Origin: a virus
UHGV virus genome: UHGV-1383708
DNA: 41,056 nucleotides
Strand: one strand, 5' to 3'
This document shows positions 4,936-40,868 of the stretch, one piece after another. Numbering within the stretch: position 1 is the stretch's first letter; each line of letters begins with the position of its first letter. A program made the translations under genes and the position numbers. Below the pieces are notes generated by a model. It was not told the DNA's origin, searched no databases, and saw only the letters and a program-made list of their open reading frames with translations.

Positions 4936-4950
4936 TTACCTTTCAGGTAA
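4936..4950. promoter_or_regulatory. Operator palindrome TTACC-TTTCA-GGTAA
   Basis: Perfect palindrome between tailspike start (4831) and small gene (5028). Confidence 0.6.
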
Positions 4951-4987
4951 TTTGCAAAACGTGCTGGATAGCAAACAAATTATTTGC

Positions 4988-5007
4988 TACTGTATAAATA
5001 TACAGTT
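4988..5007. promoter_or_regulatory. LexA (SOS) box
   Basis: TACTGTATAAATATACAGTT, CTGT-N8-ACAG with AT-rich core, close to E. coli consensus. Confidence 0.65.
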
Positions 5008-5027
5008 ATTGCATGGAGAAGATTAAG

Positions 5028-5285
5028 ATGCAGCAGTATCACTATCCACTGGAAGAGGGATTTACCGAAAGGATTCACACGCCGGGAGGCGTCAGGTCAC
5101 TGGTGGAGGGATCGCACTTGATGAAATTACTCCGGGATCTCGATAAGGATGGATTTAATGTCGATGGCCCACTTGCCGAACTGACTGCACTGATTAACTA
5201 CGTCACCAGCTCACAGATGTCTATGCAGGATCTGCAAACACATCTCGACTATTGTGCCGAACAATTACGAAAACAAACCAGATAA
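5028..5285 (+). CDS. Small protein homologous to the antirepressor shared C-terminal domain; candidate SOS-inducible antirepressor
   Basis: 86 aa; GGAGA RBS; GGVRSLVEGSHLMKLLRDLDKDGFNVDGPLAELTAL parallels SGVLGLTENSLLMNLLNQLQEDGHDVSGAAAELTTM; LexA box 20 nt upstream. Confidence 0.55.
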   Translation: MQQYHYPLEEGFTERIHTPGGVRSLVEGSHLMKLLRDLDKDGFNVDGPLAELTALINYVTSSQMSMQDLQTHLDYCAEQLRKQTR

Positions 5286-5316
5286 GTTTTGAAATTACCA
5301 ATAGGAGTGCTTATAT

Positions 5317-5331
5317 TTACCTTTTCGGTAA
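5317..5331. promoter_or_regulatory. Operator palindrome TTACC-TTTTC-GGTAA
   Basis: Perfect palindrome right after TTGAAA-N17-TTATAT promoter-like hexamers; nested in larger inverted repeat AGGAGTGC/GCACTCCT. Confidence 0.6.
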
Positions 5332-5425
5332 ATTTACATTGCACTCCTCTTGTGCCATAGTAATCGGGCACTGGCAAAATCCAGTGCCGGGATTGGTCTC
5401 CCGGATTACTACAGAGGCACATATG

Positions 5426-5445
5426 CCGCATAAGCGGTTTTTTTA
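5426..5445 (+). terminator. Intrinsic terminator downstream of small LexA-box gene
   Basis: CCGC-ataa-GCGG hairpin followed by TTTTTTT. Confidence 0.5.
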
Positions 5446-5598
5446 TGTGTAAAGCGCACCTATTCTATGGTGGGCTGTGTGGGGGCACCGAAAGGTGCGC
5501 CGGGTTCCTTTGTAGCCGGTAAGACCAACTCTGCACAGTTCACCACCATCTGATTGGTCTCAGCGGTGGTGATTAACCTAACTACAAAGGTGATCGCT

Positions 5599-38016: not shown

Positions 38017-38065
38017 CCACCACCGCGGCGCCACGCGCGCCGCACTGCAACCAAGAGAGGTATTT

Positions 38066-38314
38066 ATGAAAGGTGCATTAGGTAAGAAGGAACTCCTGGC
38101 GGTGGTTCCACTGTCATGGAGCACTATCGACCGTATGGAGCGCGCAGGGGAATTTCCTAAACGCTGGTATATCACCGATAAACGCTGCGCATGGAACCGT
38201 GATGAAGTTGAGCGTTGGCTTGATGAACGTCAGGCAGCAAGCCCGGCAGAGTTCCAGGGTAAAAAACCTCCTGTTCAGCAACGTGTATATCGTCCCGTGA
38301 GCAACGCGGCATGA
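38066..38314 (+). CDS. AlpA-family excisionase/regulator
   Basis: 82 aa; LSWSTIDRMERAGEFPKRWYITDKRCAWNRDEVERWL winged-HTH pattern; RBS AGAGAGG. Confidence 0.7.
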   Translation: MKGALGKKELLAVVPLSWSTIDRMERAGEFPKRWYITDKRCAWNRDEVERWLDERQAASPAEFQGKKPPVQQRVYRPVSNAA

Positions 38315-38423
38315 GTGTGCTGCTAAGGCACTGGAGCAAATGGTCAGGATGGTACTTATTCCTGGCCTCTGTTTCAGCATGGCTTTATCTGCTGGCATTA
38401 ATTTTCAGAGAGGGTTGGATTAA

Positions 38424-38723
38424 GTGAGAAAGTTAAGCCGACTTGAAAAATATCACATGAACAAGGTTTCAATGCGCAGTCCGTCAAAGATTGTCGCCGT
38501 TACTCCTGCGGCGATAGAGATCGAAAAACGCGCGATTGAAAGAGAGAAAAAAGGGCAGTTCCGCATTGCCGCTCACCTTTGGCTTCAGTGTATGGATGTT
38601 GCTTCTGGTGATGTTGAGCGTGCAAGGATCGCGGTTCGCAGGGACCAATGTATCACAAAAGGTAACGGCCTTCGCCGTGGCGACTATAGCGGCATAGGAT
38701 GTTGTGGGGTGGTTTATGACTAA
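38424..38723 (+). CDS. Small regulator, PerC-like (tentative)
   Basis: 99 aa from GTG with GAGGG RBS; motif GQFRIAAHLWLQCMDVASGDVERARIAVRRDQC resembles PerC/Pch-type activators as I recall them. Confidence 0.4.
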   Translation: MRKLSRLEKYHMNKVSMRSPSKIVAVTPAAIEIEKRAIEREKKGQFRIAAHLWLQCMDVASGDVERARIAVRRDQCITKGNGLRRGDYSGIGCCGVVYD

Positions 38724-39366
38724 GAAATACACACTAATCTATGCAGATCCACCCTGGGTATACCGGGACAAAGCCGCAGATGGTAATCGCGGTGCCGGTT
38801 TTAAATATCCGGTTATGAGTGTGCTGGATATCTGCCGCCTTCCTGTGTGGGATTTGGCCGATGAAAACTGTCTGTTGGCCATGTGGTGGGTGCCAACACA
38901 ACCACTCGAAGCACTAAAAGTTGTTGAGGCCTGGGGATTCCGTCTGATGACCATGAAGGGATTCACGTGGATAAAATGTGGTAGTCGACAACCAGATAAA
39001 CTGGTTATGGGTATGGGTCACATGACTCGCGCCAATAGTGAAGATTGCCTGTTTGCAGTAAAGGGAAAACTACCTACGCGCATTAATGCAGGGATCGTTC
39101 AGTCATTTACCGCACCGCGGCTTGAGCATTCAAGAAAACCAGATATCGTTCGTGAAAAACTTGTGCAATTGTTAGGCGATGTTTCTCGCATTGAACTGTT
39201 CGCCCGCCAGTCGTCTCATGGTTTCGATGTTTGGGGTAATCAGTGCGAAGACCCGGCAGTGCAACTACACCCTGGATACGCGTTGGATATTGCCAGATTA
39301 ACAAATGCATTCAGCAATGCTCCGCTGTCACCAACAGACAACCAGGGGCGGGAGCGTGCAGCATGA
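38716..39366 (+). CDS. MT-A70 family DNA N6-adenine methyltransferase, orphan
   Basis: DPPW motif (LIYADPPWVY) near N-terminus; ~216 aa; no adjacent restriction enzyme gene. Confidence 0.7.
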   Translation: MTKKYTLIYADPPWVYRDKAADGNRGAGFKYPVMSVLDICRLPVWDLADENCLLAMWWVPTQPLEALKVVEAWGFRLMTMKGFTWIKCGSRQPDKLVMGMGHMTRANSEDCLFAVKGKLPTRINAGIVQSFTAPRLEHSRKPDIVREKLVQLLGDVSRIELFARQSSHGFDVWGNQCEDPAVQLHPGYALDIARLTNAFSNAPLSPTDNQGRERAA

Positions 39367-39557
39367 ACAGGGCATCACCAGCAGATTTAAGGAAATGCCT
39401 TGAAACTGCAAACATGCTTGCACACAGCGGGATCAGGTTTGTTCCAATTCCCGCTGTCACTGATGCTGAATTTGCAACACTGTCAGCAATATTCACAGAT
39501 AAAATTGAATCACTGGCAGCAGAAGCCGAGATGGAAGAAAATCAGCAGAATAATTAA
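39363..39557 (+). CDS. Hypothetical small protein (64 aa)
   Basis: ATG overlaps stop of upstream methyltransferase gene (ATGA); MNRASPADLRKCLETANMLAHSGIRFVPIP. Confidence 0.45.
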   Translation: MNRASPADLRKCLETANMLAHSGIRFVPIPAVTDAEFATLSAIFTDKIESLAAEAEMEENQQNN

Positions 39558-39560
39558 ACG

Positions 39561-40811
39561 TTATTCCCTCGCCATCCACTTCTCAAACTTCGACGGGGAG
39601 AACGGAATCAGATCCGTATGCTCCCCGTTAATCCAGGAATCTATCATATCGGCCCACTGCTGCAACATGTAGGCGCGCTGTCTGGCGTATTCCGCTTTGT
39701 TATATACGGCGCGCACACCTTTCTGCTCATGTGCCAGAGCCTTTTCAATCCAGTCTGAAGGATAACCAGCCTCATGCAACAACGTACTGGCTGTACGGCG
39801 CATATCGTGTACGGTGAAATCCTGAATATGCTCACCATCTTCATTTATTATTTTCACCGTTCTGTCGATCAGAGAGTTCAGCGCGGCATTAGATAATGGC
39901 TTCCGGAAATTGTAACGACCAGGAACCAGATATTCACTTCCACCAGCGCACATCTGCAACCCGACCAATATATCCTGAGCCTGTTTAGGCAGGTAAATAA
40001 CATGCGCCCGGCTTCCCTTCATGCGGTCTGAAGGAATTGTCCATGTCCATTTTTTAAAATCTATTTCATCCCACGTTGCATTGGTGAATTCGCCCTTACG
40101 AACCATAGTGATAAGCACCAGTTTTAAAGCCATTTTCATAGTGCCCATAGCACCAATGGCATCCAACGTGCGGAAGAACAGGCCAATTTCTTCTGGTGTC
40201 AGTGTTCGCTCTCGTGGTTTAAATATGGCGATAGACGAAGGCTTAATGTCAGCCGCAGGATTAAACAAACCATGACCACGGTCATTGGCGTGACGGTATA
40301 CGCTGCTGATGATCTCCCTGGCCTGCACTGCTGTTGCCCGGCCACCGCGTTCGACAATCCGGTCACACAAATCACGAACCATCGATGTGGTAATTTCAGC
40401 CATCATTTTGTTGCCAAGAACCGGAAGTATGTCACGGTCGATCACTGCCTGCTTCATTGCGCGGGTACTTTCAGCCAGGATGACGTGTTTCATATAACTG
40501 TCGGTATGTACCGCAAACGTTTCGGCACCACGAATCTTTTTGATACCGTCACGTTTAGCCGCAGCCGGTGACTGGCCTGCTTTAAGCAGCTTCTTTGCAG
40601 CAATCAGTTCTTCCCGCGCTTCTGCCAGGCTGATACCGTCACGCCCATACTGCCCGATTACCAGTGTTTCGCGGCGACCGTTGATACGGTAGTCATAACG
40701 AAATGAGACCGTGCCTGACGTAAGCACAGCTACATACAGCCCGTCACGATCGGAGACCTTGTACAGTTTGTCCTGCGGCTTGAGGTTTTTTAATTTTGTA
40801 TCGGTAAGCAC
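39561..40811 (-). CDS. int: Tyrosine integrase, P4-type with N-terminal arm-binding domain; GTG start
   Basis: 416 aa; N-terminus LTDTKLKNLKPQDKLYKVSDRDGLYVAVLTSGTVSFRYDY typical of P4-like integrases; C-terminal catalytic region with HDMRRT; adjacent to attR. Confidence 0.9.
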   Translation of the reverse strand: MLTDTKLKNLKPQDKLYKVSDRDGLYVAVLTSGTVSFRYDYRINGRRETLVIGQYGRDGISLAEAREELIAAKKLLKAGQSPAAAKRDGIKKIRGAETFAVHTDSYMKHVILAESTRAMKQAVIDRDILPVLGNKMMAEITTSMVRDLCDRIVERGGRATAVQAREIISSVYRHANDRGHGLFNPAADIKPSSIAIFKPRERTLTPEEIGLFFRTLDAIGAMGTMKMALKLVLITMVRKGEFTNATWDEIDFKKWTWTIPSDRMKGSRAHVIYLPKQAQDILVGLQMCAGGSEYLVPGRYNFRKPLSNAALNSLIDRTVKIINEDGEHIQDFTVHDMRRTASTLLHEAGYPSDWIEKALAHEQKGVRAVYNKAEYARQRAYMLQQWADMIDSWINGEHTDLIPFSPSKFEKWMARE

Positions 40812-40853
40812 AATTCACCCGTATAGAAACCATTTTCATGACGGTATGAGAGT

Positions 40854-40868
40854 ATACCTTTAAGGTAA
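40854..40868. promoter_or_regulatory. Operator-like palindrome ATACC-TTTAA-GGTAA upstream of int
   Basis: One mismatch to TTACC-N5-GGTAA; 43 nt upstream of int start. Confidence 0.45.

Follow-up and report, generated by a model that had tools for sequence, protein, structure and literature searches.

A repeated palindrome in an epsilon15-type prophage

The stretch analysed here (hereafter the window) is UHGV virus genome UHGV-1383708, 41,056 nt long, in which a short palindrome, TTACC-N5-GGTAA, recurs in the control regions of most transcription units; its probable role as the operator of the immunity repressor, Rep, is the subject of this report. The att core ATTGAGTGGGAATGATT, a sequence described together with its attB at the 3' end of guaA (PMC9782041), is present as direct repeats at 59-75 and 41002-41018, and since these bracket the window, it is a complete integrated prophage. 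The immunity region (32000-38000) shares 97.8% identity with that of phiV10, placing the prophage in the genus Uetakevirus, of epsilon15/phiV10 type. Intergenic DNA accounts for 3696 of the 41056 nt (9% of the window) on the gene map. About 16 transcription units were counted, 13 of them with an operator in the control region; a P22-type immI module (7543-9927), which makes up two units, and the lysis cassette have no full operator.

A pattern search returned ten perfect copies (4936, 5317, 6377, 24947, 28112, 32605, 32667, 34998, 35710 and 35772), against a mean of 0.02 and a maximum of one in dinucleotide-preserving shuffles. The preliminary description of this DNA had already judged the enrichment non-random and the copies intergenic; the shuffled control bears out the former, and the latter is true of every perfect copy. 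Its count of nine has to be raised, 28112 having been overlooked together with the imperfect copies at 28094 and 34613, and three of its coordinates shift by one base, to 34950, 34981 and 34998. Allowing one mismatch, 18 copies were observed and 0.72 expected; besides the perfect ones these comprise four intergenic copies (28094, 34613, 34950 and 40854) and four within genes (1090, 1845, 2800 and 4704), the latter consistent with the background rate. One intergenic copy with two mismatches (34981) brings the intergenic set at up to two mismatches to 15. Host DNA does not have a comparable density, as 150 kb of Escherichia coli K-12 contained one perfect copy, inside a gene, and seven one-mismatch copies, equivalent to 2.2 per 41 kb. 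When all 5-Nx-5 palindromes of the window were counted (x = 0-12), TTACC-N5-GGTAA was a clear outlier, with 10 copies against three for the next best. The 57 perfect sites of six related genomes give the symmetrised consensus A-TTACC-wwWww-GGTAA-T. Orphan half-sites, considered as extra weak operators, were rejected, being unenriched in intergenic DNA (4 observed, 3.1 expected), and two invariant ones belong to a separate late-promoter motif. The palindrome ACCA-N4-TGGT was likewise discarded as a second operator for lack of significant enrichment.

The six genomes are the window prophage, phiV10, epsilon15, SPC32H, Enterobacter phage Tyrion and Klebsiella phage BUCT711. Each of the five relatives carries 13-18 copies at up to one mismatch, where about 0.5-0.7 would be expected, and alignments place them at syntenic positions; the hosts of the phages that bear the motif belong to four genera, Escherichia, Salmonella, Enterobacter and Klebsiella. 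Over ten syntenic sites, pairwise differences amounted to 1.6% in the half-sites, 42.6% in the N5 spacer and 35.3% in the 12-nt flanks. Constraint that is limited to the half-sites and spares the spacers and flanks marks a protein-binding site; recent duplication would not leave such a pattern. In the structurally related Burkholderia phage BcepC6B no palindrome was comparably enriched and TTACC-N5-GGTAA was absent, hence the dispersed-operator design does not extend to the capsid lineage as a whole.

Rep, the Cro-like protein and the antirepressors

Rep has an HTH_3 domain and matches the SPC32H repressor of known structure (PDB 5D50_A, E 4e-42, residues 1-190; 5D4Z_A over residues 89-190), whereas a domain search gave no match to the Peptidase S24 self-cleavage domain. 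It is 100% identical to phiV10 p40 and also to Rep in at least 80 IMG/VR contigs, each with operators nearby. Identity to epsilon15 Rep is 42% overall, and to SPC32H Rep about 42%, with the divergence mostly in the C-terminal half. Uetakevirus Reps in the phage collection are 42-78% identical and all accompany the common motif; the sharing of the motif in spite of low Rep identity fits an N-terminal domain that is far better conserved. According to one study that cites the primary work, SPC32H Rep binds palindromic DNA as a tetramer, which Ant breaks (PMC9638917). A second such study distinguishes an N-terminal DNA-binding, a middle dimerisation and a C-terminal tetramerisation domain, sets the DNA-binding pairs about 100 Å apart, sees octamers suggested by crystal contacts and describes the repression mechanism as not extensively characterized (PMC9986798).

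An IMG/VR scan for heteroimmune relatives returned 80 loci, in all of which Rep was 100% identical, and a search restricted to the N-terminal domain of Rep yielded nothing but fragments. Distant homologs of that domain in Pseudomonas and Acinetobacter phages were used in place of heteroimmune relatives. The N-terminal domain of cI from PseuP_224, a lambdoid Pseudomonas siphovirus, is 39% identical to Rep residues 4-68, and four TTACC-N4-GGTAA sites, at 10906-10945 and 11768-11820 of that genome, all flank cI in a classic OL/OR layout, with a half-site identical to that of the prophage and a spacer one base shorter. T[AT]ACC and TAACC palindromes adjoin the genes of the JBD68 and Turba homologs, and a different palindrome accompanies a more distant Acinetobacter homolog. 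The presence of TTACC-type palindromes beside distant homologs of the Rep N-terminal domain ties the half-site to that domain.

The Cro-like gene is divergent from rep and its product shows weak similarity to the HTH region of Rep. The small antirepressor gene ant is preceded by a LexA box that was found in six of six genomes; its CTGT and ACAG arms are kept in five of them, the left arm being ATGT in BUCT711.

A second antirepressor, of the Bro-N type (5554-6291), follows a leader with two Rfam matches above the gathering score, isrK at 5368-5444 (+; 74.7 bits) and the C4 antisense RNA at 5463-5550 (+; 78.6 bits). A Bro-N leader with a C4-like RNA is a P1/P7 immI-like arrangement, here with a promoter that carries a candidate Rep operator. 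The P22-type immI module consists of a P22_AR_N antirepressor (7543-8481, -), a match to the sar antisense RNA (8483-8550) and an Arc-like repressor (8812-9273), and the motif search found no Rep operator there. TL-2011b shares most of this region (7543-9273), while phiV10 does not. With the small Ant, the Bro-N/C4 module and the P22-type immI module, one prophage thus holds three different antirepressor systems.

Candidate operators and their promoters

Table 1. Positions in the window of regulatory genes, candidate Rep operators and putative promoter elements
Feature	Position	Strand	Remarks
Late-promoter motif, degenerate copy	near 2040-2060	-	
Late-promoter motif	4884-4906	-	Tailspike
Candidate operator, perfect	4936..4950		Divergent tailspike/small ant region; 50 bp from tailspike late-promoter motif, ~40 bp upstream of LexA box
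LexA box core CTGT-N8-ACAG, CTGTATAAATATACAG	4990..5005		Within TACTGTATAAATATACAGTT at 4988-5007, ahead of ant
ant, small antirepressor, 85 aa	5028..5285	+	Matches PDB 5D50_E anti-repressor, E 1.7e-47
Candidate operator, perfect	5317..5331		Starts at last base of promoter TTGAAA-17-TATATT (5289-5317)
Candidate operator, perfect	6377..6391		Starts at last base of promoter TTAAAA-16-TAAAAT (6350-6377)
Late-promoter motif	24883-24905	-	Head operon
Candidate operator, perfect	24947..24961		Between head operon and tRNA-Arg/p03-like unit
Two adjacent candidate operators	28094..28126		28112 perfect and 28094 one mismatch, 18 bp apart; between terminator of p55-like regulator and terS start
p55-like regulator gene	28213-28560		
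Candidate proximal operator, perfect	32605..32619		3 bp from DUF1064 start codon; includes DUF1064 ribosome-binding site
Promoter TTGATT-17-TTTAAT	32619..32647	-	Between operator pair; CTATTGAT invariant; read from alignment
Candidate distal operator, perfect	32667..32681		Leftward promoter of operon from DUF1064 to p55-like regulator
Candidate operator, one mismatch	34613..34627		Just 3' of cro terminator; 17 bp upstream of -35 of replication-gene promoter (34595-34567, -)
cro-like gene, 76 aa	34683..34913	-	phrog_35 transcriptional repressor; synteny with phiV10 p41 and epsilon15 gp39
Candidate OR-type operator 3, TCACC...GGTAA, one mismatch	34950..34964		In spacer of leftward cro promoter
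Candidate OR-type operator 2, TTACC...GGTGC, two mismatches	34981..34995		Perfect in epsilon15, SPC32H and BUCT711
Candidate OR-type operator 1, perfect	34998..35012		55 bp upstream of rep start codon
rep, immunity repressor, 194 aa	35068..35652	+	N-terminal HTH DNA-binding domain; C-terminal oligomerisation/Ant-binding domains
Candidate distal operator, perfect	35710..35724		Rightward early promoter, serving p39, recE/recT, xis-like, PerC-like and methylase genes
Early promoter TTGACA-17-AATTAT	35744..35772	+	Between operator pair; -35 CTATTGAC invariant in six genomes
Candidate proximal operator, perfect	35772..35786		Starts at last -10 base, spans +1 region
Candidate operator, one mismatch	40854..40868		42 bp upstream of int

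Between the divergent rep and cro-like genes lie three sites, of which 34950 falls within the leftward cro promoter (-35 at 34967-34962, -10 at 34944-34939) and 34998 is likely a site of rep autoregulation. The spacings of this triple (30-31 bp and 17 bp), as well as the 18 bp of the pair ahead of terS, are fixed across the genus. Each of the two early promoters sits between two perfect copies 62 bp apart, and in both the last T of the -10 is also the first T of the proximal operator; the 62 bp of both pairs are fixed across the genus, except that BUCT711 has 63 bp at 35710/35772, where the other five genomes have 62 bp. One-mismatch copies occur at the position equivalent to 34613 in phiV10, Tyrion and BUCT711. 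In the replication region, the DnaT-like gene (33501-34316) contains tandem repeats at 33880-34016, with 2.6 perfect copies of ATCCCGTTTTTGGGATCATTCAAC at a period of 24 and further arrays with periods of 18 and 12, which resemble origin iterons inside a replication-initiator gene.

Outside the immunity region, the copy at 5317 adjoins the promoter that drives the isrK-like and C4-like leader RNAs and the Bro-N antirepressor. The copy at 6377 lies 6 bp upstream of accessory genes, encoding phrog_10654 and a DUF2335 membrane protein, and BUCT711 likewise has a site upstream of its DUF2335 gene. At 24947 the site overlaps the -10/+1 of a TTGACA promoter that reads rightward and has an invariant -35 core, GTCAA; relative to the head late-promoter motif, the site is 62 bp upstream. 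A tRNA-Arg(UCU) at 25284-25360 (+) is downstream of the TTGACA promoter whose -10/+1 the site covers. It is overlapped by an antisense open reading frame (25290-25541, -) that is the counterpart of phiV10 gene p04, and the overlap with the tRNA makes the annotation of a p04 protein in phiV10 probably spurious. At terS, a conserved -10-like TACTAT adjoins the first operator and shares its last T with 28112(-). In phiV10 (41-119, corresponding to 28091-28126 of the window) the annotated terS start at position 41 puts both of these operators within coding sequence; this start was probably set too far upstream, as the epsilon15 start and the alignment favour an ATG just past the second operator. 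The site ahead of int has the same single mismatch in each of the six genomes, and this mismatch gives the int strand a -10-like hexamer, TATACT.

The copies had been described as usually lying directly downstream of a -10 element. This arrangement was recovered at 5317, 6377, 28112(-), 32605(-) and 35772, and not at the remaining sites.

A distinct conserved motif, CATATrTGGTT-N7-TAWWA, is confined to the regions ahead of the head operon, the tailspike and the lysis cassette, three units in all, and shuffles never produced it; its lysis-unit copy is that of phiV10, epsilon15, SPC32H and Tyrion, the relatives with an O-antigen cassette. It looks like a class of late promoter requiring an activator. 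The head and tailspike copies each contain one Rep half-site (GGTAAT) next to the -10, and the lysis promoter of the window retains only a half-site. The 62 bp between site 24947 and the head late motif were considered as a mirror of the early operator pairs, and this was rejected: the three late -10s start 62, 65 and 74 bp from the operator start, and such differing offsets point to no common geometry. Decamers resembling ATATrTGGTT, with up to one mismatch, were observed 16 times against 4.5 expected (e.g., 34594-34607, 32625-32634, 35753-35762 and 2043-2056), several of them falling within promoter spacers of early units too, and they may represent a second regulator or a bending site.

Proposed function, alternatives and known systems

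The preliminary description had taken the palindromes for immunity-repressor operators, and this reading is strengthened by the triple between rep and cro, the pairs at the early promoters, the invariant half-sites with free spacers in six phages, the homology of Rep to SPC32H Rep and the site labels in the epsilon15 record. On these sequence comparisons, the 17-bp palindromes ATTACC-N5-GGTAAT are most likely operators for the SPC32H-type Rep that the prophage itself encodes. A lysogen would have Rep on operators of 13 of the approximately 16 transcription units, and wherever an operator overlaps the core promoter RNA polymerase would be blocked, with effect on the proximal early sites, the spacer of the cro promoter, int, the Bro-N/C4 module, the accessory cassette, the tRNA/p03 unit and the double site of the terS leader. 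Credible off-switches are the sites overlapping core promoters, namely 35772, 32605, 5317, 6377, 28112/28094, 34950, 40854, 24947 (towards tRNA/p03) and 34998/34981 (as rep autoregulation), while 35710, 32667 and 34613, upstream of the -35, look like cooperativity partners. The distal early sites, 62 bp or about six helical turns upstream of the proximal ones, would probably make binding cooperative, both sites being held by a single tetramer or by some higher oligomer, and the rep-cro triple would set the switch and the autoregulation of rep. Upon DNA damage, LexA would leave its box ahead of the small ant gene, and Ant would then dismantle the Rep tetramers, so that all Rep-held promoters open together.

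Several points weigh against this interpretation or narrow it. What the sequences show is the motif, with its enrichment, conservation and geometry, and the homology of Rep and Ant; that Rep binds and represses, that the DNA loops, and what the sites some 70 bp ahead of late promoters do, we infer from these. Moreover, every Uetakevirus Rep compared keeps the same motif, and the comparison included no heteroimmune relative with a changed motif that would allow covariation to be followed. At least the OR sites are probably used by the Cro-like protein as well. Operators 4936 and 24947 precede the inferred tailspike and head late starts by about 67-79 bp, which is not a polymerase-blocking position. 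In the relatives, a site at the lysis/O-antigen junction neighbours a conversion gene with expression in the lysogen, so that occupied sites would not always be silencing there. The earlier proposal that one repressor directly holds down int, antirepressor, accessory and middle to late promoters can thus be kept for the roughly ten sites that overlap core promoters, whereas direct silencing of the late promoters by Rep is not supported by operator position; late genes may be silent simply because their activator lies in a Rep-controlled operon. It is possible, though we hold the idea only tentatively, that one Rep tetramer or a pair of them clamps the 62-bp pairs into a very tight promoter micro-loop and that Rep, from the operators some 70 bp ahead of the late promoters, exerts direct control over late genes, for instance as an anti-activator. 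If this were true, the micro-loop and the late gating, together with the 13 of about 16 units, would amount to a one-layer circuit opened at once by a LexA-controlled antirepressor.

The sites might instead be used mainly by another phage regulator, either the Cro-like protein acting as a genome-wide repressor of the lytic phase or the p55-like regulator, with Rep confined to rep-cro. The resemblance of the Cro-like protein to the Rep HTH region points this way, as does the sharing of operators by Cro and CI in lambda-type switches. The epsilon15 record, moreover, labels dispersed sites as repressor-binding but not the rep-cro triple, implying that its annotation is itself a prediction. We consider this quite unlikely, as TTACC-type palindromes also flank the cI genes of unrelated Pseudomonas siphoviruses whose products have an N-terminal domain homologous to that of Rep, and the fixed 62-bp and 30/31-bp pairs are easier to reconcile with a tetramer that has two DNA-binding pairs (PMC9986798) than with a dimer of the 76-aa Cro; joint use of the sites by Cro would be compatible with Rep as the main user and no replacement for it. 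A division of labour among the sites has also to be considered, in which only those overlapping core promoters repress, and 4936, 24947 (seen from the head operon), 34613, 35710 and 32667 are architectural, tethering Rep oligomers in the service of looping or local concentration, or else the upstream and distal sites act positively or as anti-activator sites at late promoters and not as plain off-switches. The distance of the operator centres from the inferred late starts, the position of the distal sites upstream of the -35, the rigid spacing of about six helical turns and the IHF sites annotated beside two of these operators in the epsilon15 record are all in its favour, as is the Rep tetramer, with DNA-binding pairs about 100 Å apart and octamers suggested by crystal contacts (PMC9986798). 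Even so, the architectural version refines the assignment to Rep without contradicting it, and each upstream site also adjoins a divergent or downstream promoter open to direct repression (ant at 4936, the tRNA/p03 promoter at 24947); taken jointly, the two versions seem unlikely as a substitute.

The similar layout of the early promoter cassettes 35710-35786 and 32605-32681 suggests that some copies are paralogous, and from this one could suppose that all arose passively, through the duplication of promoter cassettes or at recombination boundaries, or else serve a host transcription factor, with no immunity role. Half-sites that differ by 1.6% where spacers and flanks differ by 43% and 35%, the retention of the motif in phages of Escherichia, Salmonella, Enterobacter and Klebsiella, and the single perfect copy, inside a gene, in 150 kb of E. 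coli make this highly improbable. To our knowledge, no E. coli regulator has a TTACC-N5-GGTAA consensus.

The assignment to Rep agrees with existing annotation. The RefSeq record of epsilon15 (NC_004775.2) marks seven of these sites as protein_bind, with repressor and lysogeny notes, ahead of terS, the head operon and the tail fibre gene, at the early promoter by rep and at the RusA/DUF1064 operon; the terS site is at 12-27, and 24947 and 4936 correspond to 2931-2947 and 19895-19911. Epsilon15 is of the same genus as the window prophage and has the same motif, with syntenic sites at the terS leader, the head leader, ant/tail fibre and the early and RusA/DUF1064 promoters. Against the seven labelled sites, we counted 11 perfect and 4 near-perfect copies, the unlabelled rep-cro triple among them. 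The phiV10 record, closest to the window, has no operator features, and the window differs from epsilon15 by extra sites at the Bro-N/C4 module and the accessory cassette, both lacking in epsilon15. The Rep/Ant switch of SPC32H resembles that of the window in its homologous Rep and Ant, the LexA box at ant, the operator motif and layout, and a non-cleavable tetrameric repressor removed by an antirepressor, while the two further antirepressor modules of the window are lacking in SPC32H. The paper on vB_EcoP_ZX5 describes repressor and antirepressor effects and gives no operator sequence, and a text search of the literature for the motif with operator and phage returned nothing relevant.

The lambda operator consensus, ATCACC-N5-GGTGAT, differs from the prophage motif by one base per half-site. 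Lambda OL/OR and the window have in common a 17-bp operator of two-fold symmetry (6+5+6), a triple between the divergent repressor and cro genes and the overlap with early promoters. The contrast already drawn between this layout and the two operator clusters of lambda stands, with about 11 separate loci from 4936 to 40854 in the window, a repressor without RecA cleavage, induction by antirepressor and 62-bp pairs in place of adjacent triplets. By analogy of function, P1 is the closest known counterpart: it has 22 dispersed C1 operators (PMC8546580), and, as in the window, a single immunity repressor would act on many dispersed sites, one of them on an antirepressor operon, the immI (c4-icd-ant) module, with a C4 antisense RNA in its leader (in the window, operator 5317 and the C4-like RNA at 5463-5550), with late promoters as a separate, activator-type class. 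The 17-bp operators of P1 are asymmetric (ATTGCTCTAATAAATTT, PMC8546580) and those of the window palindromic, and the P1 prophage is a plasmid. None of the searches brought up C1 as a Rep homolog; no direct comparison was made. Mycobacteriophage L5 and its cluster A relatives offer a further precedent in their stoperators, tens of sites across the genome under a single immunity repressor (PMC9283540). Stoperators are asymmetric, bound by monomers, set in one orientation in transcribed regions and stop elongation, whereas the window sites are palindromic and at or beside promoters.

A dispersed operator set is therefore already known, since the epsilon15 record flags the same sites, the set is ordinary for the genus, and P1 and L5 provide precedents; the current understanding of phage immunity is unchanged. 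The site map nonetheless offers a regulatory map that can be used for an E. coli prophage of very common occurrence, separating the units that are probably silent in the lysogen from those that are not, and with the fixed 62-bp pairs and a Rep tetramer that has been crystallised, short-range DNA looping by a phage repressor becomes tractable to study.

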